Below are positions 2,433-64,000 of a stretch of 64,000 nt of DNA, piece by piece. The notes under the pieces are model-generated. The model did no database searches, was not told the origin of the DNA, and saw only the letters and a list, made by a program, of their open reading frames with translations. This DNA is from Escherichia coli (GTDB lineage Bacteria; Pseudomonadota; Gammaproteobacteria; Enterobacterales; Enterobacteriaceae), in the NCBI RefSeq assembly GCF_048403405.1, contig NZ_CP183129.1. One strand, given 5' to 3'. The stretch's first letter is position 1; each line of letters begins with the position of its first letter. Position numbers and translations under genes: made by a program.

Positions 2433-4232
2433 ATGAAGAATATACGTAACTTTTCGATCATAGCTCACATTGACCACGGTAAATCGACGCTGTCTGACCG
2501 TATTATCCAGATCTGCGGTGGCCTGTCTGACCGTGAAATGGAGGCGCAGGTTCTCGATTCCATGGATCTTGAGCGTGAGCGTGGCATTACCATCAAAGCG
2601 CAAAGCGTGACGCTGGACTACAAAGCGTCTGACGGCGAAACCTATCAGCTTAACTTTATCGACACCCCGGGCCACGTTGACTTCTCTTATGAAGTTTCTC
2701 GTTCGCTGGCTGCCTGTGAAGGTGCATTGCTGGTGGTCGACGCCGGGCAGGGCGTAGAAGCGCAAACCCTGGCAAACTGCTACACCGCCATGGAAATGGA
2801 TCTCGAAGTGGTGCCGGTACTGAACAAGATTGACCTGCCGGCAGCCGATCCTGAACGCGTGGCGGAAGAAATTGAAGATATTGTCGGCATCGACGCCACC
2901 GACGCGGTGCGCTGTTCAGCGAAAACCGGCGTTGGCGTACAGGACGTTCTCGAACGTCTGGTGCGCGACATTCCGCCGCCGGAAGGCGATCCGGAAGGCC
3001 CGTTGCAGGCACTCATTATCGACTCCTGGTTCGACAACTACCTGGGCGTTGTTTCACTTATCCGTATTAAAAACGGCACCCTGCGTAAGGGCGACAAAGT
3101 GAAAGTCATGAGTACCGGGCAGACCTATAACGCCGACCGTCTGGGCATCTTCACGCCAAAACAGGTTGACCGTACTGAACTGAAATGCGGCGAAGTAGGC
3201 TGGCTGGTATGTGCGATTAAAGATATCCACGGCGCTCCAGTAGGCGATACCTTAACGCTGGCGCGTAATCCGGCAGAAAAGGCGCTGCCTGGCTTTAAGA
3301 AAGTCAAACCGCAGGTATACGCCGGTCTGTTCCCGGTAAGTTCCGACGACTATGAAGCCTTCCGTGATGCGCTGGGTAAACTCAGCCTGAACGATGCCTC
3401 ACTGTTCTATGAGCCGGAAAGCTCAAGCGCGCTGGGCTTTGGTTTCCGCTGCGGCTTCCTCGGTCTGCTGCACATGGAGATCATCCAGGAACGTCTGGAA
3501 CGTGAATACGATCTGGATCTGATTACCACTGCGCCGACCGTAGTGTATGAAGTTGAAACCACGTCAAGAGAAGTTATCTACGTCGACAGCCCATCCAAGC
3601 TGCCAGCGGTAAATAACATCTACGAACTGCGCGAGCCGATTGCAGAATGTCACATGCTGCTGCCGCAGGCATATCTCGGCAACGTTATTACGCTGTGCGT
3701 AGAAAAACGCGGCGTGCAGACCAATATGGTTTACCACGGTAATCAGGTGGCGCTGACGTACGAGATCCCGATGGCGGAAGTGGTGCTCGATTTCTTCGAT
3801 CGCCTGAAATCTACCTCGCGTGGTTATGCGTCTCTGGATTACAACTTCAAACGCTTCCAGGCGTCCGACATGGTACGTGTAGACGTATTAATCAACGGTG
3901 AACGTGTTGATGCGCTGGCGTTGATCACCCACCGTGATAATTCGCAAAACCGCGGTCGCGAGCTGGTGGAGAAGATGAAAGATCTAATCCCACGCCAGCA
4001 GTTTGATATCGCTATTCAGGCAGCGATTGGTACGCACATCATTGCGCGCTCCACCGTGAAACAGCTGCGTAAAAACGTACTGGCTAAATGTTATGGCGGC
4101 GATATCAGCCGTAAGAAAAAGCTGCTGCAGAAGCAGAAAGAAGGTAAGAAACGCATGAAGCAGATCGGTAACGTCGAGCTGCCGCAGGAAGCGTTCCTCG
4201 CCATTCTGCACGTCGGCAAAGACAACAAATAA
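2433..4232 (+). CDS. lepA: translation elongation factor 4 (LepA), 599 aa
   Basis: GTPase motifs [17 protein letters not shown] and NKID at the N-terminus; length and context upstream of lepB. Confidence 0.95.
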
Positions 4233-5464: not shown

Positions 5465-7077
<1,613 letters not shown>

Positions 7078-7088
7078 GAGTAACTCCG

Positions 7089-7817: not shown

Positions 7818-7828
7818 TGAGGATTGTC

Positions 7829-8560
7829 ATGGCTGAATTACTGTTAGGCGTCAACATTGACCATATTGCAACGCTGCGTAACGCACGCGGTACTGCTTAC
7901 CCGGATCCGGTGCAGGCGGCGTTTATTGCTGAGCAGGCGGGAGCGGACGGCATTACCGTGCATTTACGTGAAGATCGCCGCCACATTACTGACCGTGATG
8001 TGCGCATCCTGCGTCAGACGCTGGATACCCGCATGAATCTGGAGATGGCGGTGACCGAAGAGATGCTGGCGATCGCCGTTGAGACGAAGCCACATTTTTG
8101 CTGTCTGGTACCGGAAAAGCGTCAGGAAGTAACAACCGAAGGCGGCCTGGACGTCGCAGGGCAGCGTGACAAAATGCGCGATGCCTGTAAACGTCTGGCG
8201 GAGGCCGGGATCCAGGTTTCTCTGTTTATCGACGCCGATGAAGGGCAGATCAAAGCTGCGGCAGAGGTTGGCGCACCGTTTATCGAGATCCACACCGGTT
8301 GCTATGCTGATGCCAAAACTGACGCCGAACAGGCGCAAGAGCTGGCGCGTATCGCCAAAGCCGCGACCTTTGCCGCTAGTCTCGGTCTGAAAGTTAACGC
8401 TGGTCACGGTCTGACCTATCACAACGTGAAAGCTATTGCCGCCATCCCTGAGATGCATGAACTGAATATCGGTCATGCCATTATTGGTCGTGCAGTGATG
8501 ACCGGACTGAAAGATGCGGTGGCAGAAATGAAGCGTTTGATGCTGGAAGCGCGTGGCTAA
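7829..8560 (+). CDS. pdxJ: pyridoxine 5'-phosphate synthase PdxJ (243 aa)
   Basis: ORF 7814..8560; the ATG at 7829 gives [21 protein letters not shown]... Confidence 0.9.
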
Positions 8561-8940
8561 TGGCAATATTAGGTTTAGGTACGGATATTGTGGAGATCGC
8601 TCGCATTGAAGCGGTGATCACCCGATCCGGTGAGCGCCTGGCACGCCGCGTATTAAGCGATAACGAATGGGAAATTTGGAAAACGCACCACCAGCCGGTG
8701 CGTTTTCTGGCGAAACGCTTTGCCGTAAAAGAAGCCGCAGCAAAAGCGTTTGGCACCGGGATCCGCAATGGTCTGGCGTTTAATCAGTTTGAAGTATTTA
8801 ACGATGAGCTTGGTAAGCCACGGCTGCGACTGTGGGGCGAGGCATTAAAACTGGCGGAAAAGCTCGGCGTTGTAAATATGCATGTAACGCTGGCAGATGA
8901 ACGCCACTATGCTTGCGCCACGGTAATTATTGAAAGTTAA
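8560..8940 (+). CDS. acpS: holo-[acyl-carrier-protein] synthase (126 aa)
   Basis: ORF 8560..8940 overlapping the pdxJ stop; [16 protein letters not shown]... 4'-phosphopantetheinyl transferase fold. Confidence 0.9.
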
Positions 8941-11655: not shown

Positions 11656-13757
<2,102 letters not shown>

Positions 13758-17000: not shown

Positions 17001-17902
17001 GTGACAACCCGGAGTGTGCCGACCAGGAGCACCAGGCGAAATCAAACGACGCCGATCCGGGCCTGAATGTAAAACTGTCGTTCGATATCAACGAAGATGT
17101 GGCAGCACCGTATATTGCCACTGGCGCACGTCCGAAAGTTGCTGTGCTGCGTGAGCAGGGCGTGAACTCGCATGTTGAAATGGCGGCAGCTTTCCACCGT
17201 GCAGGCTTCGATGCTATCGACGTGCATATGAGCGACCTGCTGGCTGGACGCACGGGCCTGGAGGATTTCCACGCCCTGGTCGCGTGCGGTGGTTTCTCCT
17301 ACGGTGATGTGCTGGGTGCCGGTGAAGGTTGGGCGAAGTCTATCCTGTTCAATGACCGTGTACGCGATGAGTTTGCAACCTTCTTCCATCGTCCGCAAAC
17401 GCTGGCGCTGGGGGTATGTAACGGTTGCCAGATGATGTCTAACCTGCGCGAACTGATCCCAGGTAGTGAGTTGTGGCCACGTTTTGTGCGTAACACCTCC
17501 GATCGCTTTGAAGCGCGTTTCAGCCTGGTTGAAGTGACCCAAAGCCCGTCACTGCTATTGCAGGGGATGGTGGGCTCGCAAATGCCGATTGCTGTGTCTC
17601 ACGGTGAAGGGCGTGTGGAAGTGCGTGATGCGGCGCATCTGGCGGCACTGGAAAGCAAAGGGCTGGTGGCACTGCGCTATGTCGATAACTTCGGCAAAGT
17701 CACTGAAACCTACCCGGCTAACCCGAACGGTTCTCCGAACGGTATTACGGCGGTCACGACTGAAAGTGGTCGAGTCACCATTATGATGCCGCACCCGGAA
17801 CGTGTTTTCCGTACTGTCAGCAACTCCTGGCATCCGGAAAACTGGGGCGAGGATGGGCCGTGGATGCGTATTTTCCGCAATGCACGTAAGCAGTTGGGGT
17901 AA
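14015..17902 (+). CDS. purL: phosphoribosylformylglycinamidine synthase (1295 aa)
   Basis: Large single ORF; C-terminal glutamine amidotransferase domain with catalytic Cys in GVCNGCQMM. Confidence 0.95.
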
Positions 17903-17960
17903 GCCGTCAACCCATTGGTTTTGCAGCCGGATGAGGCATTAAGCACCAACTACTATTATA

Positions 17961-17985
17961 AGCTCCCAACTTCGGGAGCTTTTTT
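17961..17985 (+). terminator. purL intrinsic terminator
   Basis: agctccc-aacttc-gggagct hairpin followed by TTTTT. Confidence 0.6.
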
Positions 17986-17986
17986 G

Positions 17987-18100
17987 TGTCTGTAAATCAC
18001 GACAATGGGTGGTTTGCCGTGTCGCTTTCTGGCGACATTTAACTCATTGATTTTAATATTATCTAATAAGTTTATCTTAAGTTGTCTCTTTTTAGCGACA
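17987..18100 (+). promoter_or_regulatory. three GlrR-type activator sites (TGTC-N10-GACA) upstream of glmY
   Basis: TGTCtgtaaatcacGACA (17987-18004), TGTCgctttctggcGACA (18020-18037) and TGTCtctttttagcGACA (18083-18100). Confidence 0.6.
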
Positions 18101-18189
18101 CAGTGGCTGATTTACATTCAAATAGCGAAGAAGCCATAAATCCCTCAAAGCAGCATATAATCAGTACGTTACCAAACTATTTTCTTTAT

Positions 18190-18209
18190 TGGCACAGTTA
18201 CTGCATAAT
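18190..18209 (+). promoter_or_regulatory. glmY promoter with overlapping sigma-54 (-24/-12) and sigma-70 (-10) elements
   Basis: TGGCAC-agtta-CTGCA (18190-18205) matches the sigma-54 consensus TGGCAC-N5-TTGCA; CATAAT at 18204-18209; +1 predicted near 18217. Confidence 0.6.
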
Positions 18210-18216
18210 AGTAACC

Positions 18217-18400
18217 AGTGGCTCATTCACCGACTTATGTCAGCCCCTTCGGGACGTGCTACATAAAATACGAATGACGCACAACAAGGTGCCTGCCGTC
18301 CAACTTCTGATATCAGCGTAGCTATATCAACCATCGGGCGAAACGTCGAGTTAGGCACCGCCTTATTCCATAACAAAGCCGGGTAATTCCCGGCTTTGTT
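18217..18400 (+). ncRNA. glmY: GlmY small RNA (184 nt)
   Basis: Begins AGTGGCTCATTCACCGACTTATGTCAGCCCC; ends with hairpin aaagccggg-taatt-cccggcttt (18375-18397) plus a U-tract; lies between purL and glrK. Confidence 0.85.
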
Positions 18401-18458
18401 GTATCTGAACTTCCCCTCGGTTAGCATCAGGCTATTCGCGTCTGACGAGAGTAACACC

Positions 18459-19886
18459 TTGAAACGCTGGCCCGTTTTTCCCCGCTCATTACGACAACTG
18501 GTAATGCTGGCATTTTTGCTGATTCTGCTGCCCCTGTTGGTGCTGGCATGGCAAGCCTGGCAAAGCCTGAATGCACTTAGCGATCAGGCAGCGCTGGTTA
18601 ACCGCACTACGCTTATTGATGCCCGGCGCAGTGAAGCGATGACCAACGCGGCACTGGAGATGGAGCGCAGCTACCGTCAGTACTGCGTGCTGGACGACCC
18701 TACGCTTGCGAAGGTTTATCAAAGCCAGCGCAAGCGTTACAGCGAAATGCTTGATGCCCACGCAGGCGTGCTGCCGGACGATAAACTCTACCAGGCATTA
18801 CGTCAGGATTTGAACAATCTGGCTCAACTTCAGTGTAACAACAGTGGTCCTGATGCCGCCGCCGCCGCGCGTCTTGAAGCCTTTGCCAGTGCCAATACCG
18901 AAATGGTGCAGGCCACGCGCACAGTAGTGTTCTCTCGTGGGCAGCAACTTCAGCGTGAAATCGCCGAACGTGGGCAATATTTTGGTTGGCAATCGCTGGT
19001 GCTATTTCTGGTGAGTCTGGTGATGGTGCTACTTTTCACGAGGATGATTATCGGTCCGGTGAAAAATATCGAGCGCATGATCAACCGGCTGGGGGAAGGG
19101 CGTTCTCTGGGCAATAGTGTCTCGTTCAGTGGACCGAGCGAGTTACGCTCGGTTGGGCAACGTATTCTTTGGTTAAGTGAGCGCCTGTCATGGCTGGAAT
19201 CCCAACGCCATCAATTTTTAAGACATTTATCTCATGAATTAAAAACGCCACTGGCGAGTATGCGCGAGGGCACTGAATTACTGGCTGACCAGGTTGTCGG
19301 GCCGCTTACGCCAGAGCAAAAAGAGGTGGTGAGCATTCTTGATAGCAGCAGCCGCAATTTGCAAAAGTTGATCGAACAACTGCTTGATTACAACCGTAAA
19401 CAGGCGGACGGTGCGGTGGAACTGGAGAATGTTGAGTTAGCGCCACTGGTGGAAATGGTGGTTTCTGCTCATAGCCTGCCCGCGCGGGCTAAAATGATGC
19501 ATACCGATGTCGATCTCAAAGCAACAGCTTGCCTGGCGGAGCCAATGCTGCTGATGAGCGTACTGGATAATCTTTACTCCAATGCGGTGCACTACGGGGC
19601 TGAATCCGGTAACATTTGCCTTCGCAGCAGTTTACATGGCGCGCGGGTTTATATTGATGTCATCAATACAGGAACACCCATTCCGCAAGAGGAACGCGCC
19701 ATGATCTTCGAACCCTTTTTTCAGGGAAGCCACCAGCGAAAAGGGGCGGTGAAGGGCAGCGGTCTGGGATTAAGCATTGCCAGGGATTGTATTCGCCGTA
19801 TGCAAGGGGAACTGTATCTGGTCGACGAGAGCGGGCAAGACGTTTGCTTCCGCATTGAATTGCCGTCGTCGAAAAACACGAAATAA
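18459..19886 (+). CDS. glrK: sensor histidine kinase GlrK (475 aa, TTG start)
   Basis: ORF 18396..19886; the in-frame TTG at 18459 gives (M)KRWPVFPRSLRQ...; two transmembrane segments; H-box LSHELKTPL; HATPase domain. Confidence 0.85.
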   Translation: MKRWPVFPRSLRQLVMLAFLLILLPLLVLAWQAWQSLNALSDQAALVNRTTLIDARRSEAMTNAALEMERSYRQYCVLDDPTLAKVYQSQRKRYSEMLDAHAGVLPDDKLYQALRQDLNNLAQLQCNNSGPDAAAAARLEAFASANTEMVQATRTVVFSRGQQLQREIAERGQYFGWQSLVLFLVSLVMVLLFTRMIIGPVKNIERMINRLGEGRSLGNSVSFSGPSELRSVGQRILWLSERLSWLESQRHQFLRHLSHELKTPLASMREGTELLADQVVGPLTPEQKEVVSILDSSSRNLQKLIEQLLDYNRKQADGAVELENVELAPLVEMVVSAHSLPARAKMMHTDVDLKATACLAEPMLLMSVLDNLYSNAVHYGAESGNICLRSSLHGARVYIDVINTGTPIPQEERAMIFEPFFQGSHQRKGAVKGSGLGLSIARDCIRRMQGELYLVDESGQDVCFRIELPSSKNTK

Positions 19887-20050
19887 TGCTAACAGCCTAT
19901 CCCATCAGGCTATTTTATTTGCCAGTTTGGCCCTGGGCAGTGCTCGAAATCCTCACGTACGACATGTACGCTCCGGTTTCTCCGCGCTGTCCATGTCCAG
20001 ACTGTCTGTAACAATTACGCCCACTGGGAAAGGCGCTAAGTCTGGTGAAT

Positions 20051-20764
20051 ATGCGACACATTTTTCAACGATTATTGCCCCGACGGCTGTGGCTGGCAGG
20101 GCTGCCATGTCTGGCATTGCTGGGTTGTGTGCAGAGTCACAATAAACCAGCCATTGATACGCCAGCAGAAGAAAAAATTCCGGTTTATCAACTGGCTGAC
20201 TATCTTTCTACTGAATGTAGCGACATCTGGGCGCTGCAAGGTAAATCAACCGAAACCAATCCGCTTTACTGGCTGCGGGCGATGGATTGTGCTGATCGTT
20301 TAATGCCTGCGCAGTCGCGTCAGCAAGCTCGCCAATATGACGACGGCAGCTGGCAAAAGACCTTTAAACAAGGGATTTTGCTCGCCGACGCCAAAATTAC
20401 GCCGTATGAGCGCCGCCAGCTGGTCGCGCGCATTGATGCGCTAAGTACCGAGATCCCGGCACAGGTTCGCCCTCTGTATCAACTCTGGCGCGACGGTCAG
20501 GCGCTGCAACTGCAACTGGCGGAAGAGCGCCAACGCTACGGCAAACTCCAGCAATCCAGCGACAGCGAGCTGGATACATTGCGCCAGCAACATCACGTTC
20601 TACAGCAGCAACTGGAACTCACCACCCGCAAGCTGGAAAACCTGACCGATATTGAACGCCAGCTCTCGACCCGCAAACCGGCTGGAAATTTCTCGCCGGA
20701 TACGCCGCACGAGGGTGAAAAGCCCGCGCCATCCATCCATGAGGTCACTCCTGATGAGCCATAA
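20051..20764 (+). CDS. qseG: outer-membrane lipoprotein QseG (237 aa)
   Basis: Signal peptide with lipobox LALLGC; coiled-coil rich C-terminus; sits between the kinase and regulator genes. Confidence 0.8.
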   Translation: MRHIFQRLLPRRLWLAGLPCLALLGCVQSHNKPAIDTPAEEKIPVYQLADYLSTECSDIWALQGKSTETNPLYWLRAMDCADRLMPAQSRQQARQYDDGSWQKTFKQGILLADAKITPYERRQLVARIDALSTEIPAQVRPLYQLWRDGQALQLQLAEERQRYGKLQQSSDSELDTLRQQHHVLQQQLELTTRKLENLTDIERQLSTRKPAGNFSPDTPHEGEKPAPSIHEVTPDEP

Positions 20765-22088
20765 ACCTGCGCATTTATTATTGGTCGATGACGATCCGGG
20801 ATTGCTGAAACTGCTTGGCCTGCGCCTGATCAGCGAAGGCTACAGTGTGGTCACGGCGGAAAGTGGCGCTGAAGGATTACGGGTACTGAATCGCGAAAAA
20901 GTAGATTTAGTTATCAGCGACCTGCGGATGGATGAAATGGACGGTATGCAGCTGTTTGCTGAAATTCAGAAAGTGCAGCCTGGAATGCCAGTAATTATTC
21001 TTACCGCGCATGGTTCTATTCCCGATGCCGTTGCTGCAACACAGCAGGGAGTGTTCAGTTTCCTCACCAAGCCTGTCGATAAAGACGCGCTATATCAGGC
21101 AATTGACGATGCGCTGGAACAATCCGCGCCAGCCACCGATGAACGCTGGCGCGAGGCGATTGTCACCCGCAGCCCGCTGATGCTGCGTTTGCTGGAACAG
21201 GCGCGGCTGGTGGCGCAATCAGACGTCAGCGTTTTGATTAATGGCCAGAGCGGCACCGGGAAAGAGATTTTCGCCCAGGCTATCCACAACGCCAGCCCGC
21301 GTAACAGCAAGCCGTTTATTGCTATTAACTGTGGTGCATTGCCCGAGCAATTGCTGGAGTCGGAACTGTTTGGTCATGCGCGTGGCGCGTTTACTGGCGC
21401 TGTCAGCAATCGCGAAGGTTTATTCCAGGCGGCGGAAGGCGGTACGCTATTTCTCGATGAGATTGGCGATATGCCCGCACCGTTGCAGGTTAAACTGCTG
21501 CGCGTGTTGCAGGAGCGTAAAGTGCGCCCGCTGGGCAGTAACCGCGATATTGATATCGACGTGCGGATTATTTCTGCCACTCACCGCGACCTGCCAAAAG
21601 CGATGGCGCGCGGGGAATTCCGCGAAGATCTCTATTACCGCCTCAACGTTGTCAGCCTGAAAATTCCGGCACTGGCGGAGCGTACAGAAGACATTCCGCT
21701 ACTGGCAAATCACCTGTTGCGCCAGGCGGCAGAGCGACATAAACCGTTTGTCCGCGCGTTCTCCACCGATGCGATGAAACGCCTGATGACCGCGAGCTGG
21801 CCGGGTAATGTGCGCCAGTTGGTCAACGTGATTGAACAGTGCGTGGCGCTGACCTCATCTCCGGTGATTAGCGATGCATTAGTAGAGCAGGCGCTGGAGG
21901 GCGAAAACACGGCGCTGCCAACCTTTGTTGAAGCACGTAATCAGTTTGAACTCAACTATTTGCGTAAGCTGCTGCAAATCACCAAAGGCAACGTCACCCA
22001 CGCGGCGAGAATGGCGGGGCGCAACCGGACAGAATTTTATAAACTGCTTTCCCGACACGAGCTGGATGCAAACGATTTCAAGGAATGA
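20754..22088 (+). CDS. glrR: sigma-54-dependent response regulator GlrR (444 aa)
   Basis: Receiver LLVDDD; AAA+ Walker A GQSGTGKE; sigma-54 contact motif GAFTGA; C-terminal HTH; 11-nt overlap with qseG. Confidence 0.9.
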
Positions 22089-22112
22089 ATTGGCGTTATG
22101 TGTTACGTTTAG

Positions 22113-22487
<375 letters not shown>

Positions 22488-22500
22488 ACCGCGTCAAGGA

Positions 22501-22524
22501 TTGCCGGATGTTTCCATCCGGCAA
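22501..22524. terminator. bidirectional hairpin between convergent glnB and hmp
   Basis: ttgccggatg-tttc-catccggcaa perfect 10-bp stem. Confidence 0.5.
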
Positions 22525-22531
22525 CATCAAA

Positions 22532-23722
22532 TCACAGCACCTTATGCGGACCAAAGCATTCGTAATGAATGTTTTCCTGCTTCACGCCCAGATCCACTAA
22601 CTGTTTCGCGGCAAACTGCATGAAGCCAACCGGGCCGCAGAGATAGAACTGCATTGTCGGATCGCTGAACGCACCTTCCAGTTTGCTCAAATCCATCAGA
22701 CCTTCGCTATCAAACTGACCTTTAGAGCGATCGGCTTCGCTCGGCTGACGATACCAGGTGTGCGCGGTAAAGCGCGGCAGTGACAGCCCCAGTTCCTTAA
22801 CTTCATCAGCAAAGGCGTGAACATCGCCATTTTCTGCCGCATGGAACCAGTTCACTTGTGCTGTGTGGCCTGCTTTTGCCAGTGTGTCGAGCATTGCCAG
22901 CATTGGCGTTTGGCCGACACCAGCAGAGATTAACGTCACCGGCGTGTCATCTGCGACAGCCATAAAGAAATCACCTGCCGGAGCGACCAGTTTCACGACA
23001 TCGCCAACATTGGCGTGATTGTGCAGCCAGTTGGATACCTGCCCACCCTCTTCGCGTTTCACCGCAATACGATAGCCTTTGCCATCCGGTTTGCGAGTCA
23101 AAGAGTACTGACGAATTTCCTGATGCGGGAAACCTTCCGGCTTCAGCCAGACGCCGAGATATTGCCCTGGACGGTATTCTGCCACTGCGCCACCGTCGAC
23201 CGGCTCCAGTTCGAAGCTGGTGATAAGCGCGCTGCGCGGTGTTTTAGCCACAATGCGGAAATCGCGAGTACCTTCCCAGCCACCGGCTTTGCTGGCGTTT
23301 TCGTTATAGATTTCCGCCTCGCGATTGATAAATACATTAGCCAGTACGCCATAGGCTTTACCCCATGCGTCCAGCACTTCCTGGCCCGGGCTGAACATTT
23401 CGTCCAGCGTCGCCAACAGGTGTTCACCGACAATGTTGTACTGTTCCGGTTTGATCTGGAAACTGGTGTGCTTCTGCGCGATTTTTTCTACCGCTGGCAG
23501 CAGCGCAGGCAGGTTTTCAATATTACTGGCGTAGGCGGCAATGGCGTTAAACAGGGCTTCACGTTGATCGCCATTACGCTGGTTACTCATGTTAAAAATT
23601 TCTTTGAGTTCTGGGTTATGAGTAAACATACGGTCGTAGAAATGGGCGGTTAACTTTGGCCCTGTTTCCACCAGTAAAGGGATGGTGGCTTTTACTGTAG
23701 CGATGGTTTGAGCGTCAAGCAT
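22532..23722 (-). CDS. hmp: flavohemoglobin / nitric oxide dioxygenase (396 aa)
   Basis: N-terminal globin domain followed by FAD- and NAD-binding reductase domains. Confidence 0.95.
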
Positions 23723-34724: not shown

Positions 34725-34735
34725 GGAGTCAGCGG

Positions 34736-37386: not shown

Positions 37387-38199
37387 TTAAAGATCCAGCC
37401 CAGCCGCTACGTGGCGAATGCCGCGAATCGCTAAACCCGCATCAGCGTTGATCATCACACCGCTTAATGCGCGATTATTGCGCCGCGATGCCAACATCAC
37501 ATACGGACCCGTAAAATCCGCCGGTTGCGGGAAAAATTGCAGCGGTAAAATGGCGGCAATTTTCTCCGGCGTCAGAGACTGCATTATCGAGGTTTCACTT
37601 TGCCCGAGCGCCTGTGGGCCGCGCAGGTCGCTGGCCATACCACACGGGCCGACGCCATTCACCCGCACTTTCGGTGCCAGTTCATAAGCCAGTTGGCGAA
37701 TAAGTCCGGTTGCGGCATGTTTACTGGCGGTGTACAGCGGGCCACCGCCGCCGGGATACCAGGCGGCATTTGACAGTGTGAAAATCATGCTGCCTTCACT
37801 GGCGATTAACGCCGGAGCGCAGGCTTTTGCGCCCAGCAGGTAACCGAGTACGTTGACGTTAAACAGCTCGTGGAAGCCAGTTTCGAGCGTCTCTGCGGGA
37901 GTATTAACCAGTGAGGCATTGTGATCCCAGATGCCCGCATTGCCGATAAAACAATCCAGCTTGCCAGAACGAGTCAGGATCTGATCGACCGCGCGTTGAT
38001 AATCGGCATAGCAGGTCACGTTACCTTCCACCGCCAGAATATGTTCGCCAAATCGCTGACGCAGACTGGCGACTTTTGCCGCCGACAGTTCCAGCGTGGC
38101 AACCTGCGCGCCTTCTTCGATAAATCGCTCGACCAGCGCCAGGCCTAATCCCGATCCGCCGCCGGTAATAAAGATGGACTCGTTATGCAGATCGCTCAT
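37387..38199 (-). CDS. hcaB: cis-dihydrodiol dehydrogenase, SDR family (270 aa)
   Basis: Cofactor motif TGGGSGLG; SDR fold. Confidence 0.9.
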
Positions 38200-38515
38200 G
38201 GCTGCGCCTCCGGTAAGTCGATGAAGATGTCACCACCTTCAACGTGTACTGGATAAGTGGTTAGCGGATCGGTGGCGGGCAGGCATAACGCTTTCCCCGT
38301 TTTCAGGCAAAAACTGGCGGCGTGCAGCGGGCACTCCACCGTGGCGTCATCTTCCAGATACCCTTCTGACATCGACGCATTACCATGGCTGCAACGATCG
38401 TTAATGGCATAAAACTCGCCGCCTACGTTGAACAGGGCGATGACGGGCGAGGTATCGATCCGGAGAGCCTCACCCTCCGGCACATCCGCAACGGGACACG
38501 CATAAATTCGATTCA

Positions 38516-38516
<1 letters not shown>
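38196..38516 (-). CDS. hcaC: Rieske [2Fe-2S] ferredoxin subunit (106 aa)
   Basis: Rieske motifs CSHGNA and CPLHAASF. Confidence 0.9.
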
Positions 38517-40428
<1,912 letters not shown>

Positions 40429-41577: not shown

Positions 41578-42717
41578 ATGGTTTTGCAATCCACGCGCTG
41601 GTTGGCGCTCGGCTATTTCACATACTTTTTTAGTTACGGCATTTTTCTACCTTTCTGGAGCGTCTGGCTTAAAGGGATTGGTTTAACGCCAGAAACCATC
41701 GGCCTGTTATTGGGGGCAGGTCTGGTTGCCCGTTTTCTCGGGAGTTTGCTCATCGCGCCCCGCGTCAGCGATCCTTCTCGCCTGATTTCCGCCTTGCGCG
41801 TGCTGGCACTGCTGACACTTCTCTTTGCTGTCGCCTTCTGGGCGGGGGCGCACGTAGCGTGGCTGATGCTGGTGATGATTGGCTTTAACCTCTTTTTCTC
41901 ACCGCTGGTACCGTTGACCGATGCACTGGCGAATACGTGGCAAAAGCAGTTCCCGCTTGATTACGGCAAAGTGCGACTGTGGGGCTCGGTGGCGTTTGTC
42001 ATTGGCTCGGCGCTGACGGGCAAACTGGTCACTATGTTTGATTATCGGGTGATCCTCGCGCTGTTGACGTTGGGCGTGGCATCCATGCTGCTCGGCTTTC
42101 TCATCCGTCCGACGATTCAGCCACAAGGGGCAAGCCGCCAGCAGGAGAGCACCGGTTGGTCAGCGTGGTTGGCGCTGGTTCGCCAGAACTGGCGCTTTCT
42201 GGCCTGCGTTTGTTTATTGCAGGGGGCGCATGCGGCCTATTACGGTTTTAGCGCCATTTACTGGCAGGCCGCTGGCTACTCGGCCTCGGCGGTGGGCTAT
42301 TTGTGGTCGCTGGGCGTGGTGGCGGAAGTCATTATCTTTGCGCTGAGTAATAAACTTTTCCGCCGTTGTAGTGCACGCGATATGCTGTTGATCTCAGCGA
42401 TTTGCGGCGTAGTGCGCTGGGGCATTATGGGAGCAACTACGGCGTTGCCGTGGTTGATAGTGGTGCAAATTCTGCATTGTGGCACCTTCACGGTCTGCCA
42501 CCTGGCCGCCATGCGCTATATTGCCGCTCGCCAGGGTAGCGAAGTCATCCGTTTACAGGCGGTTTACTCTGCCGTCGCGATGGGCGGCAGTATCGCGATC
42601 ATGACCGTTTTCGCCGGTTTCCTGTATCAATATCTGGGCCACGGCGTGTTCTGGGTGATGGCGCTGGTGGCGCTTCCGGCAATGTTTTTGCGCCCGAAAG
42701 TTGTTCCCTCATGCTGA
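41578..42717 (+). CDS. hcaT: MFS transporter, putative 3-phenylpropionate permease (379 aa)
   Basis: 12-helix hydrophobic profile. Confidence 0.85.
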   Translation: MVLQSTRWLALGYFTYFFSYGIFLPFWSVWLKGIGLTPETIGLLLGAGLVARFLGSLLIAPRVSDPSRLISALRVLALLTLLFAVAFWAGAHVAWLMLVMIGFNLFFSPLVPLTDALANTWQKQFPLDYGKVRLWGSVAFVIGSALTGKLVTMFDYRVILALLTLGVASMLLGFLIRPTIQPQGASRQQESTGWSAWLALVRQNWRFLACVCLLQGAHAAYYGFSAIYWQAAGYSASAVGYLWSLGVVAEVIIFALSNKLFRRCSARDMLLISAICGVVRWGIMGATTALPWLIVVQILHCGTFTVCHLAAMRYIAARQGSEVIRLQAVYSAVAMGGSIAIMTVFAGFLYQYLGHGVFWVMALVALPAMFLRPKVVPSC

Positions 42718-50306: not shown

Positions 50307-52157
50307 ATGGCCTTATTACAAATTAGTGAACCTGGTTTGAGTGCTGCGCCGCATCAGCGTCGTCTGGCGGCCGGTATTGACCTGGGCACAACCAACTCGC
50401 TGGTGGCGACAGTGCGCAGCGGTCAGGCCGAAACGTTAGCCGACCATGAAGGCCGTCACCTGCTGCCGTCTGTTGTTCACTATCAACAGCAAGGGCATTC
50501 GGTGGGTTATGACGCGCGTACTAACGCCGCGCTCGACACCGCCAACACCATTAGTTCTGTTAAACGCCTGATGGGGCGCTCGCTGGCTGATATCCAGCAA
50601 CGCTATCCGCATCTGCCTTATCAATTCCAGGCCAGCGAAAACGGCCTGCCGATGATTGAAACGGCGGCGGGGCTGCTGAACCCGGTGCGCGTTTCTGCGG
50701 ACATCCTCAAAGCACTGGCGGCGCGGGCAACTGAAGCCCTGGCAGGCGAGCTGGATGGTGTCGTTATCACCGTTCCGGCGTACTTTGACGATGCCCAGCG
50801 TCAGGGCACCAAAGACGCGGCGCGTCTGGCGGGGTTGCATGTTCTGCGCTTACTTAACGAACCGACTGCTGCGGCTATCGCCTACGGGCTGGATTCCGGT
50901 CAGGAAGGCGTGATCGCCGTTTATGACCTCGGTGGCGGGACGTTTGATATTTCCATTCTGCGCTTAAGTCGCGGCGTGTTTGAAGTGCTGGCAACCGGCG
51001 GTGATTCCGCGCTCGGCGGCGATGATTTCGACCATCTGCTGGCGGATTACATTCGCGAGCAGGCGGGCATTCCTGATCGTAGCGATAACCGCGTTCAGCG
51101 TGAACTGCTGGATGCCGCCATTGCAGCCAAAATCGCGCTGAGCGATGCGGACTCCGTGACTGTGAATGTTGCGGGCTGGCAGGGCGAAATCAGCCGTGAA
51201 CAATTCAACGAACTGATCGCGCCACTGGTAAAACGAACCTTGCTGGCTTGTCGTCGCGCGCTGAAAGACGCTGGCGTAGAAGCTGATGAAGTGCTGGAAG
51301 TGGTGATGGTTGGCGGTTCTACTCGCGTGCCGCTGGTGCGTGAACGAGTAGGCGAATTTTTCGGTCGTCCACCGCTGACTTCTATCGACCCGGATAAAGT
51401 CGTCGCTATTGGCGCGGCGATTCAGGCGGATATTCTGGTGGGTAACAAGCCGGACAGCGAAATGCTGTTGCTGGATGTGATCCCGCTGTCGCTGGGCCTC
51501 GAAACGATGGGCGGCCTGGTGGAGAAAGTGATTCCGCGTAATACCACTATTCCGGTGGCGCGCGCTCAGGATTTCACCACCTTTAAAGATGGTCAGACGG
51601 CGATGTCTATCCATGTAATGCAGGGTGAGCGCGAACTGGTGCAGGACTGCCGCTCGTTGGCGCGTTTTGCGCTTCGTGGTATTCCGGCGCTACCGGCTGG
51701 CGGCGCGCATATTCGCGTGACGTTCCAGGTCGATGCCGACGGTCTTTTGAGCGTGACGGCGATGGAGAAATCCACCGGCGTTGAGGCGTCTATTCAGGTC
51801 AAACCTTCTTATGGCCTGACCGACAGCGAAATCGCTTCGATGATCAAAGACTCAATGAGCTATGCCGAGCAGGACGTAAAAGCCCGTATGCTGGCAGAAC
51901 AAAAAGTAGAAGCGGCGCGTGTGCTGGAAAGTCTGCACGGCGCGCTGGCTGCTGATGCCGCGCTGTTAAGCACCGCAGAGCGTCAGGTCATTGACGATGC
52001 TGCCGCTCACCTGAGTGAAGTGGCGCAGGGCGATGATGTTGACGCTATCGAACAAGCGATTAAAAACGTAGACAAACAAACCCAGGATTTCGCCGCTCGC
52101 CGCATGGACCAGTCGGTTCGTCGTGCGCTGAAAGGCCATTCCGTGGACGAGGTTTAA
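50307..52157 (+). CDS. hscA: Hsp70-type chaperone HscA (616 aa)
   Basis: Hsp70 signature GIDLGTTNS; start at [10 protein letters not shown]. Confidence 0.95.
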
Positions 52158-52158
52158 T

Positions 52159-52494
52159 ATGCCAAAGATTGTTATTTTGCCTCATCAGGATCTCTGCCCT
52201 GATGGCGCTGTTCTGGAAGCGAATAGTGGTGAAACCATTCTCGACGTTGCGCTGCGTAACGGTATCGAGATTGAACACGCCTGTGAAAAATCCTGTGCTT
52301 GCACCACCTGCCACTGCATCGTTCGCGAAGGTTTTGACTCGCTGCCGGAAAGCTCAGAGCAGGAAGACGACATGCTGGACAAAGCCTGGGGACTGGAGCC
52401 GGAAAGCCGTTTAAGCTGCCAGGCGCGCGTTACCGACGAAGATTTAGTGGTCGAAATCCCGCGTTACACTATCAACCATGCGCGTGAGCATTAA
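52159..52494 (+). CDS. fdx: [2Fe-2S] ferredoxin (111 aa)
   Basis: Cysteine motif [12 protein letters not shown]. Confidence 0.95.
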
Positions 52495-52505
52495 CAGAGG
52501 TTAGT

Positions 52506-59900: not shown

Positions 59901-61901
59901 CCGATTGGCGATTTTAACGGTGAATTGCGCGTCATGGCGCAAGCCTGGACGGCAGATGACTTCGGTAGCAACGAAAGCAAAGTGATAGTTGCCGCACCGG
60001 TGATTGCTGAACTGAACATGCCGCGCTTTATGGCGAGTGGCGATACCTCGCGTCTGACGCTGGATATCACTAATCTTACCGATAAACCGCAAAAACTGAA
60101 CGTTGCCCTGACCGCCAGTGGTTTGCTTGAACTGGTCAGCGTTTCACCCGCAGCCGTTGAATTAGCGCCAGGTGTGCGTACTACGCTGTTTATCCCGGTG
60201 CGAGCATTGCCGGGTTATGGCGATGGAGAAATTCAGGCCACCATTAGCGGGTTAGCGTTACCGGGTGAAACCGTTGCCGATCAGCATAAGCAGTGGAAAA
60301 TCGGCGTCCGTCCGGCGTTCCCGGCACAAACGGTTAATTACGGTACGGCGTTACAGCCTGGTGAGACATGGGCGATTCCGGCGGATGGATTGCAAAACTT
60401 CTCGCCTGTTACGCTGGAAGGGCAATTGTTGTTGAGCGGCAAACCACCGCTGAACATCGCACATTATATCAAAGAGTTAAAAGCGTATCCGTACGGGTGT
60501 CTTGAGCAAACCGCCAGCGGCCTGTTCCCGTCACTTTATACCAACGCAGCCCAACTGCAGGCGTTGGGCATCAAAGGCGACAGTGATGAGAAACGCCGTG
60601 CATCGGTCGATATCGGCGTTTCCCGTTTGCTGCAAATGCAACGTGATAACGGCGGCTTTGCGCTGTGGGATAAAAACGGTGACGAAGAGTACTGGCTGAC
60701 GGCTTACGTGATGGATTTCCTGGTCCGCGCAGGTGAGCAGGGGTACAGCGTGCCGACAGACGTCATTAACCGGGGAAATGAGCGTCTGCTGCGCTATTTA
60801 CAAGATCCGGGCATGATGTCGATCCCGTACGCGGATAATCTCAAAGCCAGTAAATTCGCCGTACAGTCTTACGCTGCGCTGGTGCTGGCCCGTCAGCAAA
60901 AAGCTCCACTGGGTGCGCTGCGTGAAATCTGGGAGCATCGTGCAGATGCCGCTTCTGGTTTACCGCTGCTGCAACTTGGCGTTGCGCTGAAAACCATGGG
61001 TGATGCGACGCGTGGTGAAGAAGCAATTGCGTTGGCGCTGAAAACGCCGCGTAATAGTGATGAGCGGATATGGCTGGGTGATTACGGTAGTCCACTGCGC
61101 GACAACGCGTTGATGCTCTCCTTGCTGGAAGAAAATAAACTGCTACCCGATGAGCAGAACACTTTGCTGAACACGCTTTCGCAGCAGGCATTTGGTGAAC
61201 GCTGGCTATCGACCCAGGAAAGCAACGCGTTGTTCCTGGCTGCCCGTACGATTCAGGATTTACCGGGTAAATGGCAGGCGCAAACCTCTTTCTCAGCTGA
61301 GCCGCTGACAGGCGAGAAAACGCTAAACAGCAATCTGAATAGCGATCAACTTGCCACCTTGCAGGTGACCAACAGTGGCGATCAGCCGTTATGGCTGCGT
61401 GTGGATGCCAGCGGTTATCCGCAATCCGCACCTTTACCGGCGAACAATGTGCTGCAAATCGAGCGTCATATTCTTGGTACTGATGGTAAGAGTAAATCGC
61501 TGGACTCGTTACGTAGCGGCGATCTGGTGCTGGTCTGGTTGCAGGTAAAAGCCAGTAACAGCGTGCCGGATGCGTTAGTCGTGGATCTGCTGCCTGCGGG
61601 TCTGGAACTGGAAAACCAGAATCTGGCGAACGGTAGCGCCAGCCTGGAGCAAAGTGGTGGCGAAGTGCAAAACTTACTGAACCAGATGCAGCAGGCGAGC
61701 ATTAAGCACATTGAGTTCCGTGATGATCGCTTTGTGGCGGCGGTTGCCGTTGATGAATACCAACCGGTAACGCTGGTGTATCTGGCGCGGGCGGTGACGC
61801 CGGGAACGTATCAGGTACCGCAACCGATGGTGGAATCAATGTATGTTCCCCAATGGCGGGCGACCGGCGCGGCTGAAGATTTGCTGATTGTCAGACCGTA
61901 A
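56940..61901 (+). CDS. yfhM: alpha-2-macroglobulin-family lipoprotein (1653 aa)
   Basis: Lipoprotein signal MKKLRVAACMLMLALAGC; thioester motif CLEQ (YGCLEQTAS); stop abuts pbpC start. Confidence 0.95.
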   Translation: MKKLRVAACMLMLALAGCDNNDNAPTAVKKDAPSEVTKAASSENVSSAKLSAPERQKLAQQSAGKALTLLDLSEVQLDGAATLVLTFSIPLDPDQDFSRVIHVVDKKSGKVDGAWELSDNLKELRLRHLEPKRDLIVTIGKEVKALNNATFSKDYEKTITTRDIQPSVGFASRGSLLPGKVIEGLPVMALNVNNVDVNFFRVKPESLPAFISQWEYRNSLANWQSEKLLQMADLVYTGRFDLNPARNTREKLLLPLGDIKPLQQAGVYLAVMNQAGRYDYSNPATLFTLSDIGVSAHRYHNRLDIFTQSLENGAAQQGIEVSLLNEKGQTLTQATSDAQGHVQLENDKNAALLLARKDGQTTLLDLKLPALDLAEFNIAGAPGYSKQFFMFGPRDLYRPGETVILNGLLRDADGKALPDQPIKLDVIKPDGQILRSVVSQPENGLYHFTWPLDSNAATGMWHIRANTGDNQYRMWDFHVEDFMPERMALNLTGEKTPLTPKDEVRFSVVGYYLYGAPANGNTLQGQLFLRPLREAVSALPGFEFGDIAAENLSRTLDEVQLTLDDKGRGEVSTESQWKETHSPLQVIFQGSLLESGGRPVTRRAEQAIWPADALPGIRPQFASKSVYDYRTDSTVKQPIVDEGSNAAFDIVYSDAQGVKKAVSGLQVRLIRERRDYYWNWSEDEGWQSQFDQKDLIENEQTLDLKADETGKVSFPVEWGAYRLEVKAPNEAVSSVRFWAGYSWQDNSDGSGAVRPDRVTLKLDKASYRPGDTIKLHIAAPTAGKGYAMVESSEGPLWWQEIDVPAQGLDLTIPVDKTWNRHDLYLSTLVVRPGDKSRSATPKRAVGVLHLPLGDENRRLDLALETPTKMRPNQPLTVKIKASNKNGEMPKQVNVLVSAVDSGVLNITDYVTPDPWQAFFGQKRYGADIYDIYGQVIEGQGRLAALRFGGDGDELKRGGKPPVNHVNIVAQQALPVTLNEQGEGSVTLPIGDFNGELRVMAQAWTADDFGSNESKVIVAAPVIAELNMPRFMASGDTSRLTLDITNLTDKPQKLNVALTASGLLELVSVSPAAVELAPGVRTTLFIPVRALPGYGDGEIQATISGLALPGETVADQHKQWKIGVRPAFPAQTVNYGTALQPGETWAIPADGLQNFSPVTLEGQLLLSGKPPLNIAHYIKELKAYPYGCLEQTASGLFPSLYTNAAQLQALGIKGDSDEKRRASVDIGVSRLLQMQRDNGGFALWDKNGDEEYWLTAYVMDFLVRAGEQGYSVPTDVINRGNERLLRYLQDPGMMSIPYADNLKASKFAVQSYAALVLARQQKAPLGALREIWEHRADAASGLPLLQLGVALKTMGDATRGEEAIALALKTPRNSDERIWLGDYGSPLRDNALMLSLLEENKLLPDEQNTLLNTLSQQAFGERWLSTQESNALFLAARTIQDLPGKWQAQTSFSAEPLTGEKTLNSNLNSDQLATLQVTNSGDQPLWLRVDASGYPQSAPLPANNVLQIERHILGTDGKSKSLDSLRSGDLVLVWLQVKASNSVPDALVVDLLPAGLELENQNLANGSASLEQSGGEVQNLLNQMQQASIKHIEFRDDRFVAAVAVDEYQPVTLVYLARAVTPGTYQVPQPMVESMYVPQWRATGAAEDLLIVRP

Positions 61902-64000
61902 ATGCCTCGCTTGTTAACCAAACGCGGCTGCTGGATAACGCTGGCAGCTGCGCCATTTCTCCTTTTTCTTGCAGCGTGGGGAGCAGATAAACTCTGGCCT
62001 CTACCGCTGCATGAAGTCAATCCCGCACGAGTGGTTGTGGCGCAGGATGGGACGCCGCTCTGGCGCTTTGCCGATGCGGAAGGCATCTGGCGTTATCCGG
62101 TAACAATCGAAGATGTTTCTCCACGTTACCTTGAAGCGCTGATCAATTATGAAGATCGCTGGTTCTGGAAGCATCCGGGGGTGAATCCATTCTCGGTGGC
62201 GCGCGCAGCATGGCAAGATCTCACTTCGGGAAGGGTTATTTCCGGTGGCAGCACGCTCACTATGCAGGTTGCTCGTCTGCTTGATCCTCACCCCAAAACA
62301 TTTGGCGGCAAAATTCGCCAGCTCTGGCGCGCGTTGCAACTGGAGTGGCATCTGTCTAAGCGTGAAATTCTTATCTTGTATCTTAACCGCGCTCCGTTTG
62401 GCGGTACGTTGCAGGGGATCGGTGCGGCAAGTTGGGCTTATCTCGGAAAATCGCCTGCGAATTTAAGCTATTCCGAGGCGGCAATGCTGGCGGTGTTACC
62501 GCAAGCGCCCAGCCGTCTTCGCCCGGATCGTTGGCCGGAGCGTGCCGAAGCCGCGCGTAATAAAGTGCTCGAACGGATGGCTGCGCAAGGTGTGTGGTCC
62601 CGTGAGCAGGTAAAAGAGTCAAGGGAAGAACCCATCTGGCTGGCACCCCGACAAATGCCGCAACTGGCACCGCTGTTTTCGCGCATGATGCTCGGTAAAA
62701 GCAAAAGCGACAAAATCGTTACTACGCTGGATGCCGGTCTTCAACGACGTCTGGAAGAACTGGCGCAAAACTGGAAAGGACGATTGCCGGCGCGCAGCTC
62801 ACTGGCGATGATCGTGGTTGATCATACCGATATGTGTGTTCGCGGCTGGGTGGGATCGGTAGATCTCAACGATGATTCACGCTTTGGTCATGTTGATATG
62901 GTCAATGCGATCCGATCGCCAGGATCGGTGCTCAAACCGTTTGTTTATGGTCTGGCGCTGGATGAAGGCTTGATCCACCCGGCATCACTGCTGCAAGACG
63001 TCCCCCGGCGCACCGGTGATTATCGACCAGGTAACTTTGATAGCGGTTTTCATGGCCCGATCAGCATGAGCGAGGCGCTGGTGCGCTCGCTGAATTTACC
63101 AGCTGTGCAGGTGCTGGAAGCCTATGGACCGAAACGGTTTGCAGCAAAATTACGCAATGTTGGATTGCCGTTGTATCTGCCCAACGGCGCTGCGCCGAAT
63201 CTTTCGCTCATTCTCGGCGGCGCTGGTGCAAAACTGGGGGATATGGCGGCGGCCTATACCGCGTTTGCTCGCCACGGCAAGGCAGGTAAATTGCGCTTAC
63301 AGCCTGACGATCCGCTGCTTGAACGGCCTTTAATGTCGTCGGGGGCGGCGTGGATCATTCGCCGGATTATGGCTGATGAAGCGCAACCCTTACCGGATAG
63401 TGCCTTGCCGCGCGTCGCCCCACTGGCATGGAAAACGGGCACCAGCTATGGCTATCGTGATGCCTGGGCGATTGGGGTTAACGCTCGCTATGTTATTGGG
63501 ATCTGGACTGGCAGACCGGACGGCACGCCCGTTGTTGGTCAGTTTGGCTTTGCCAGTGCCGTACCATTGTTGAATCAGGTCAATAATATCTTACTGTCGC
63601 GCAGTGCGAATCTGCCGGAAGACCCGCGCCCGAACTCAGTCACTCGTGGCGTTATCTGCTGGCCAGGCGGACAGTCTTTGCCGGAAGGTGACGGTAACTG
63701 TCGCCGCCGCCTGGCAACCTGGCTGCTGGACGGGAGTCAGCCGCCAACTCTATTACTGCCGGAGCAGGAAGGCATTAATGGCATTCGTTTCCCCATCTGG
63801 CTGGATGAAAACGGCAAACGTGTTGCCGCTGATTGCCCTCAGGCGCGACAAGAAATGATAAATGTCTGGCCGCTACCGCTGGAACCCTGGTTGCCCGCAT
63901 CAGAACGCCGCGCTGTGCGCTTACCACCGGCCTCGACAATTTGCCCGCCATACGGTCACGATGCACAACTCCCACTGCAGCTGACAGGTGTTCGCGATGG
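61902..64000 (+). CDS. pbpC: penicillin-binding protein 1C, N-terminal about 700 codons (3'-truncated by window edge)
   Basis: Starts MPRLLTKRGCWITLAAAPFLLFLAAW; glycosyltransferase motifs (EDRWFWKHPGVN; RFGGTLQGIG); reading frame open to the window end. Confidence 0.9.
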   Translation, partial: MPRLLTKRGCWITLAAAPFLLFLAAWGADKLWPLPLHEVNPARVVVAQDGTPLWRFADAEGIWRYPVTIEDVSPRYLEALINYEDRWFWKHPGVNPFSVARAAWQDLTSGRVISGGSTLTMQVARLLDPHPKTFGGKIRQLWRALQLEWHLSKREILILYLNRAPFGGTLQGIGAASWAYLGKSPANLSYSEAAMLAVLPQAPSRLRPDRWPERAEAARNKVLERMAAQGVWSREQVKESREEPIWLAPRQMPQLAPLFSRMMLGKSKSDKIVTTLDAGLQRRLEELAQNWKGRLPARSSLAMIVVDHTDMCVRGWVGSVDLNDDSRFGHVDMVNAIRSPGSVLKPFVYGLALDEGLIHPASLLQDVPRRTGDYRPGNFDSGFHGPISMSEALVRSLNLPAVQVLEAYGPKRFAAKLRNVGLPLYLPNGAAPNLSLILGGAGAKLGDMAAAYTAFARHGKAGKLRLQPDDPLLERPLMSSGAAWIIRRIMADEAQPLPDSALPRVAPLAWKTGTSYGYRDAWAIGVNARYVIGIWTGRPDGTPVVGQFGFASAVPLLNQVNNILLSRSANLPEDPRPNSVTRGVICWPGGQSLPEGDGNCRRRLATWLLDGSQPPTLLLPEQEGINGIRFPIWLDENGKRVAADCPQARQEMINVWPLPLEPWLPASERRAVRLPPASTICPPYGHDAQLPLQLTGVRD

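Follow-up and report, generated by a model that had tools for sequence, protein, structure and literature searches.

Junctions at which the stop codon of one gene overlaps the next gene's start codon are a substrate of translational coupling. Two models describe how such coupling may be achieved, namely re-initiation by the terminating 30S subunit or 70S ribosome, or the unfolding of an inhibitory structure by the translating ribosome, which opens the site to a fresh 30S subunit (PMC12548453). Among five native E. coli gene pairs with a 4-nt overlap (spacing −4) that have been tested, three were strictly coupled, one was coupled to ∼60%, and one was uncoupled (PMC6728339). Coupling drops steeply with distance, is already less efficient at a spacing of −8, and has a predictive range of −8 to +10 (Huber et al. 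2023, PMC10666635), while junctions with spacings of −4 or −1 are enriched genome-wide for subunits of complexes (PMC10666635). Upon depletion of RRF, the ratios of downstream to upstream ribosome density were unchanged, overlapping pairs included (PMC7538156), evidence against a dominant role of re-initiation in E. coli; these data and the reporter data (PMC6728339, PMC10666635) disagree on the E. coli mechanism. The pair rnc/era is generally accepted to be coupled by re-initiation (review PMC10582724), the underlying studies being, as cited in that review, Ahnn 1986, Chen 1990, Anderson 1996, and Powell 1999.

A second described system bears on the junctions considered here. QseG is required for QseE/QseF signaling, and the qseEGF operon of E. 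coli has been described (Göpel & Görke 2018, PMC6075780). In Proteus, glmY is co-transcribed with qseE, qseG, and qseF according to a 2022 study of P. mirabilis, in which a figure legend refers to a display of intergenic spaces and overlaps in E. coli, in Salmonella, and in Proteus. We rely on this literature for the coupling of rnc/era, for the joint transcription of qseEGF, and for what QseG does; coordinates, annotation, start support, frequency statistics, the comparative series, and the lack of predicted structure come from the present analysis.

Eight overlap junctions in a segment of the E. coli chromosome

The window, i.e., the whole stretch of 64,000 nucleotides that was analyzed, is a segment of the E. 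coli chromosome extending from rseA to pbpC. Aligned with E. coli strain 4621 (NZ_CP103479.1), the window showed no mismatch across 40,999 nt and two across 24,001 nt, and the gene coordinates used here are those of the RefSeq/PGAP annotation of that strain, transferred to window numbering. The annotated gene order begins with rseA, rseB, rseC, lepA, lepB, rnc, era, recO, pdxJ, and acpS; the middle of the window holds purL, qseE, qseG, glrR, glnB, hmpA, and glyA, and the remainder holds yphH-A, hcaDBCFE, hcaR, hcaT, the isc operon, yfhM, and pbpC. Rfam matches comprise GlmY just 5′ of qseE (18217–18364), rncO, an iscRS element, and ryfA, among others.

A first-pass annotation of the sequence had listed eight stop/start overlaps, and each was found at exactly the listed position in the transferred RefSeq annotation, that of qseG and glrR also by direct reading, with all CDSs at these junctions intact. 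On the plus strand, rseA (153–803) and rseB (803–1759) overlap by one nucleotide (TAATG, 803), rseB and rseC (1756–2235) by four (ATGA, 1756–1759), rnc (5495–6175) and era (6172–7077) likewise by four (ATGA, 6172–6175), this being the pair with coupling reported in the literature, and pdxJ (7829–8560) and acpS (8560–8940) by one (TAATG, 8560). On the minus strand, hcaE (39031–40392) and hcaF (38516–39034) overlap by four nucleotides (ATGA, 39031–39034) with a strong Shine-Dalgarno (SD) sequence, CAGGAGGUG, hcaF and hcaC (38196–38516) by one (TGATG, 38516) with a weak SD, and hcaC and hcaB (37387–38199) by four (ATGA, 38196–38199) with the SD CGGAGGC. These seven junctions belong to the canonical class of −4 (NTGA) and −1 (TRATG) overlaps and fall within the −8 to +10 class of stop-start distances, whereas the eighth, the 11-nt overlap of qseG and glrR, lies outside both classes in Escherichia. 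The operons concerned are rpoE-rseABC, rnc-era-recO/pdxJ-acpS, qseE-qseG-glrR-glnB, and hcaEFCBD. With seven junctions at −4 or −1 and one, longer and in the other reading phase, at −11, a ribosome finishing the upstream gene ends on or beside the next start codon.

NCBIfam equivalog profiles aligned from residue 1–3 of RseB, RseC, AcpS, HcaF, HcaC, HcaB, and GlrR; profiles for Era begin at residue 7–9, and the first ten codons of era contain no alternative start. Judged from the sequence, the annotated downstream starts at the eight junctions are credible. SD pairing was weak before acpS, hcaC, and rseB (−3.3, −3.1, and −4.2 kcal/mol) and strong before hcaF and hcaB (−11.6 and −9.5 kcal/mol). 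A literature search for coupling in rseABC and hca found nothing specific. A full-length Rfam match to AsrC, an antisense RNA of the rseC mRNA, was detected on the minus strand (1720–2551; 507 bits), antisense to the rseB/rseC ATGA junction, the whole of rseC, and the beginning of lepA; if expressed in E. coli, this RNA would pair across the rseB/rseC junction.

Forty-one co-directional neighbor pairs were counted in the window, and in 18 of them the spacing lies between −20 and +20. Seven of these 18 tight pairs are spaced by exactly −4 or −1, as compared to ∼0.9 expected under uniform spacing (p = 1.3e-5), an excess that is the universal prokaryotic pattern; the commonest spacings in E. coli rank −4 > −1 > −8 (PMC10666635). 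For the −8 to +6 class there was no enrichment, with 9 of the 41 window pairs (22%) against 707 of 2,987 unidirectional pairs (24%) genome-wide (PMC10666635; p = 1.0). The “chains” of overlapping junctions highlighted in the first-pass annotation are thus all present but typical rather than exceptional, since the window fraction matches that of the genome.

Several further junctions were observed. Four co-directional pairs have a spacing of +11 nt, namely era/recO (7078–7088), recO/pdxJ (7818–7828), yphC/yphB (34725–34735), and fdx/iscX (52495–52505), and hcaB/hcaD has a spacing of +9; all five agree with an E. coli-specific spacing peak at about +10/11 (PMC10666635). The genes yfhM and pbpC abut with 0 nt between them (TAAATG, 61899–61904) and no detectable SD, and hscA and fdx lie 1 nt apart (52155–52161); both pairs were missing from the first-pass list. 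In two convergent pairs the 3′ ends of the genes overlap, over 4 nt in tadA/mltF (12201–12204) and over 9 nt in hcaT/csiE (42709–42717).

The qseG/glrR junction and the qseE-qseG spacer

All genes of the system lie on the plus strand. The sensor kinase gene qseE (glrK), recognized by annotation and by histidine-kinase families, is the first gene of the operon (18459–19886). It is followed by qseG (yfhG; 20051–20764), which encodes an outer-membrane lipoprotein of 237 aa with the lipobox LLGC (NCBIfam equivalog NF007997, 356 bits, cut-off 234), and by glrR (qseF; 20754–22088), which encodes a sigma-54-dependent response regulator of 444 aa (NCBIfam equivalog NF011695, 980 bits against a cut-off of 763), residues 1–444 of which align to profile positions 2–445. 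With QseG and GlrR above the curated cut-offs and the kinase-lipoprotein-regulator order 3′ of glmY, the locus was identified as the qseEGF system. A complex of QseG with QseE has reportedly been studied by cryo-EM (2025).

The 11-nt overlap extends from the glrR ATG (20754–20756) to the qseG TAA (20762–20764) and reads ...CCTG ATG AGC CAT AAA..., the ATG and the TAA being in different frames. Inside qseG, an SD-like GAGGUC (20741–20746) is located 7 nt 5′ of the glrR ATG (9 nt for the GAGG core) and forms a duplex of −6.3 kcal/mol with the anti-SD. K-12 MG1655 and the divergent strain APEC O18 have the same overlap in their annotation. A 5-kb segment spanning the junction was found in 5,425 of 5,426 complete E. 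coli genomes, with 100% identity in several, and the 66-nt junction region, a single-copy sequence in the same proportion of genomes (5,425/5,426), was matched exactly in only 6 of the 5,425. At about position 20734, just 5′ of the glrR SD, the window strain has catccaTccatgagg as compared to catccaCccatgagg in the K-12 oligonucleotide BG1305; this single base differs from K-12 and most E. coli and lies outside the SD and the overlap. Escherichia also has a second in-frame ATG (20739–20741), located 15 nt 5′ of the glrR start in the annotation, and initiation there would lengthen the overlap to 26 nt; this ATG was rejected as the true start, having no SD and no conservation outside Escherichia, while the GlrR profile fits the annotated start.

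For comparison, one genome per species with QseG was taken, giving 42 loci from Enterobacteriaceae other than Salmonella and Klebsiella, in 41 of which the stop of qseG and the start of glrR could both be placed. In every one of 42 genomes (the window and 41 species) qseG and glrR overlap. The overlap is 4 nt in 20 genomes (most Enterobacter, Lelliottia, Phytobacter, Silvania, and Kosakonia), 14 nt in 10 (Raoultella, some Enterobacter, and one Kluyvera), 11 nt in 6 (Escherichia only, E. albertii included), 1 nt in 4 (Citrobacter and Yokenella), and 8 nt in 2 (Kluyvera). Its length accordingly varies even within Enterobacter and within Kluyvera, and in Citrobacter and Enterobacter the junction takes the canonical short form. 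A GAGG/GGAG-type SD motif is positioned 4–9 nt 5′ of the glrR ATG in all 42 genomes, and this ATG, with its SD, is the only start conserved across all of them. The GlrR N terminus, which begins M[ST], is conserved, and the QseG tail is variable.

Single-base differences accompany the changes in overlap length. The −14 and −4 forms are set apart by a single missing base immediately 5′ of the ATG (gaagccATGA against gaagcATGA), which shifts the qseG frame such that the −14 form ends at the TAA in CGT AAA. Escherichia and Citrobacter likewise differ by one base (GCCATGATG against TCC-TGATG), and in Escherichia a change of glrR codon 3 from CGC to CAT (R3H) creates a TAA in glrR codons 3–4. A frame change of one nucleotide in the variable 3′-terminal part of qseG, together with the TAA supplied by R3H, probably gave rise to the −11 geometry specific to Escherichia. 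These changes follow the textbook route in which overlaps form by 3′ extension of the upstream gene, with overlaps of 8, 11, and 14 nt classed as “long phase-1” overlaps (Fonseca et al. 2014, PMC3887535). In Citrobacter koseri NCTC10786, the qseG match (about 2501–3244 in the locus) is interrupted by an in-frame stop (2620), with the closest kinase-like ORF ending 674 nt 5′ of the match; either the gene is frameshifted or disrupted, or the assembly contains an indel error.

The order qseE-qseG-glrR was retained in 40 loci. A kinase-like ORF ends 11–77 nt 5′ of qseG in 35 of these 40, and exactly 17 nt 5′ in 25. In the E. coli window the qseE-qseG spacer measures 164 nt (19887–20050, plus strand), and comparison with relatives indicated that this length is due to an element of ∼147 bp inserted relative to E. 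albertii. The element is absent from E. albertii and from most of the Enterobacteriaceae compared, which have the 17-nt spacer, and is flanked by a direct repeat of GCTAA. E. coli genomes carry it at 5 sites each (median). Over its full length the element forms one long hairpin (MFE −60.6 kcal/mol, z = −4.4), with none of 200 shuffled sequences as stable, and carries a terminator-like hairpin at its left end (19894–19911). A repeat search for terminal inverted repeats in the element returned only an internal 9-nt pair, the 9/10 match between its termini being seen by eye only. Taken together, the element looks like a palindromic intergenic repeat of the MITE/ERIC type within the qseEGF operon. 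A literature search for the element's name gave no match; a possible identity is the “RSA” family (Blattner 1997).

The first-pass annotation had also proposed that QseG is an integral part of this system, and had taken the overlap as the sign of it. The membership itself is borne out by the genetics and biochemistry in PMC6075780 and by the gene order retained at the loci compared. The overlap speaks to one half of that arrangement, in that the tight junction joins qseG to glrR and, given the 164-nt gap in E. coli, not to qseE.

Extent of coupling and alternative explanations

When 100-nt pieces around each junction were folded and their MFE compared with that of shuffled sequences, an approach that can miss long-range masking structures, no significant masking structure was found at any of the eight junctions (z from −1.60 to +0.94). 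At qseG/glrR, z was +0.69 and the centroid structure was near-empty. The unfolding model thus found no in silico support, consistent with sites open to de novo initiation, and coupling through RNA unfolding was not invoked for any junction. A consensus promoter scan of 17900–22600 found no promoter-like site on the plus strand inside qseG, with total sites not above those in shuffled sequences, and terminator counts over the same interval were likewise not above shuffles, such that both scans are uninformative. The overlap leaves no space for a terminator or a promoter between the qseG and glrR CDSs.

The eight junctions are genuine but ordinary co-directional CDS overlaps in well-characterized operons, at which coupling is possible and its degree probably specific to each pair, with glrR probably coupled partially rather than strictly. 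Coupling at such sites would proceed by re-initiation of the terminating ribosome or through a site kept unfolded for a fresh 30S subunit. At qseG/glrR, the ribosome translating qseG would traverse the GAGG motif and then the AUG, terminating 8 nt downstream of that AUG; synthesis of GlrR would then draw on SD-assisted re-initiation, for which the ribosome moves back a short way, and to a substantial extent also on de novo initiation at the unstructured site. Such a mixture, i.e., partial coupling, is the most likely mode for GlrR. The remaining junctions probably range from strongly dependent on the upstream gene to largely independent of it. We infer how, and how strongly, genes are coupled at the seven junctions other than rnc/era, and likewise the split between the two modes at glrR.

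Published observations on the qseG/glrR pair bear on this reading. According to proteomics as cited by Göpel & Görke (PMC6075780), cells contain 11 copies of QseG and 36 of QseF; this is not the ratio that strict re-initiation would give, although protein stability confounds the comparison. The same authors constructed a chromosomal qseG-3xFLAG strain (oligonucleotides BG1305/BG1306), in which a tag, a stop codon, and an FRT scar separate qseG codon 237 from the glrR ATG, and which “retained full functionality” for glmY activation (PMC6075780). The native overlap is therefore dispensable given an independent ribosome-binding site, and the engineered strain suggests that it is dispensable under laboratory conditions. 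In that strain, CTAAGGAGGATATTCAT precedes the glrR ATG, which we take to be the built-in ribosome-binding site of the Datsenko-Wanner priming site.

An unlikely alternative holds that the overlaps, and that of 11 nt especially, are neutral by-products of stop and frame changes in a compact genome, with each downstream gene initiating independently at its own SD and the overlap having no regulatory role. Simulations without selection do yield a spectrum in which overlaps of 4 nt exceed those of 1 nt and these exceed longer ones (PMC3887535), the RRF data favor de novo initiation (PMC7538156), and the strain lacking the qseG/glrR overlap is functional (PMC6075780). The free variation of overlap length within Enterobacter and Kluyvera, together with an SD that is always present at glrR and an unstructured site, fits as well. 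However, a spacer between qseG and glrR occurs in 0 of 42 genomes despite single-base routes to a nonsense codon in the QseG tail (GAG, CAA, AAG, and AAA), most of the pairs tested elsewhere were coupled (PMC6728339), and the genome-wide enrichment of −4 and −1 junctions for complex subunits (PMC10666635), which RseA/RseB and HcaE/HcaF fit, is not what by-products would lead one to expect.

The first-pass annotation had asserted tight translational coupling, in its strict form a scheme in which all eight junctions operate by termination-reinitiation and the downstream protein comes only from ribosomes that have finished the upstream gene. We consider this quite improbable as a general account. 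Coupling by re-initiation is documented for rnc/era (PMC10582724); overlap alone does not establish tight coupling, as 3 of 5 tested −4 pairs were strict while one was uncoupled and one stood at ∼60% (PMC6728339), none of the window's pairs being among those five. The overlap geometry and the conservation of the overlapping state of qseG/glrR in 42/42 genomes would suit strict coupling, and the weak SDs at acpS, hcaC, and rseB would favor dependence on the upstream ribosome, but hcaF and hcaB have strong SDs and the sites appear unstructured and accessible. Density ratios that are indifferent to RRF depletion even for overlapping pairs (PMC7538156) also argue against it. At qseG/glrR in particular, a spacing of −11 is outside the −8 to +10 class, in which −8 is already less efficient (PMC10666635), reported QseF copies exceed those of QseG, and replacement of the overlap was tolerated (PMC6075780).

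A further, comparably doubtful reading, taken as one proposal, is that selection maintains an overlap of qseG and glrR irrespective of its length and phase, and that the hairpin repeat in the E. coli spacer might uncouple expression of the kinase from that of the lipoprotein and regulator. Its first part derives from the persistence of overlap in 42/42 genomes through repeated switches among −1, −4, −8, −11, and −14, with single-base routes to a spacer available. If selection were at work, ribosomes terminating 5–11 nt past the AUG would re-initiate backwards efficiently on native mRNA, and the series would show, as a ready-made natural test, how re-initiation depends on distance and on phase. 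Finally, that some overlaps are annotation artefacts with the true start further downstream is close to negligible: automatic pipelines can choose upstream starts, and the ATG at 20739 makes start choice at glrR nontrivial, but equivalog profiles fit from residue 1–3 in 7 of 8 downstream proteins, the exception, Era (residue 7–9), has no alternative start in its first ten codons, and the glrR ATG is conserved with its SD in 42/42 genomes, while ATG 20739 is neither conserved nor preceded by an SD.

For partial, pair-specific coupling as the preferred reading, the practical caution is that an overlap predicts coupling only probabilistically. The biology inferred in the first-pass annotation is either published or a generic expectation, and in that respect matters little.

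Comparison with described systems

Nothing in the eight junctions departs from known kinds, and the finding is thus already known: the junctions are in RefSeq, and both rnc/era coupling and the operon context are published. The rnc-era junction (6172–6175) is identical to that of the published coupling, without any difference, and our finding re-describes a known case. All seven short junctions share their geometry with the −4 and −1 “spatially coupled” pairs hyfHI, astDB, ydbH/ynbE, menDH, and bioBF (Huber et al. 2019/2023; review Brown & Wade 2025), with the SD inside the upstream ORF and a location within operons; the frequent pairing of complex subunits in that class is matched by RseA/RseB and HcaE/HcaF.

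The qseE-qseG-glrR locus has the same genes in the same order, with glmY 5′ and glnB 3′, as the published qseE-qseG-qseF (glrK-yfhG-glrR) “three-component system” (Reading et al.; Göpel & Görke 2018). Coupling at the junction is absent from the discussion in the accounts examined, and the variation of overlap length across genera is a small addition made here. What is mildly new is this qseG/glrR length series, together with the repeat insertion in the E. coli spacer. Like the overlaps in the model of Fonseca et al. (2014), the −8, −11, and −14 forms of qseG/glrR stand one nucleotide of frame change from a −4 or −1 form and end at the first available stop inside glrR. Unlike that class, the same junction occurs in both phases among close relatives, which makes it a convenient natural series, and one that could serve researchers of re-initiation as a small natural experiment.
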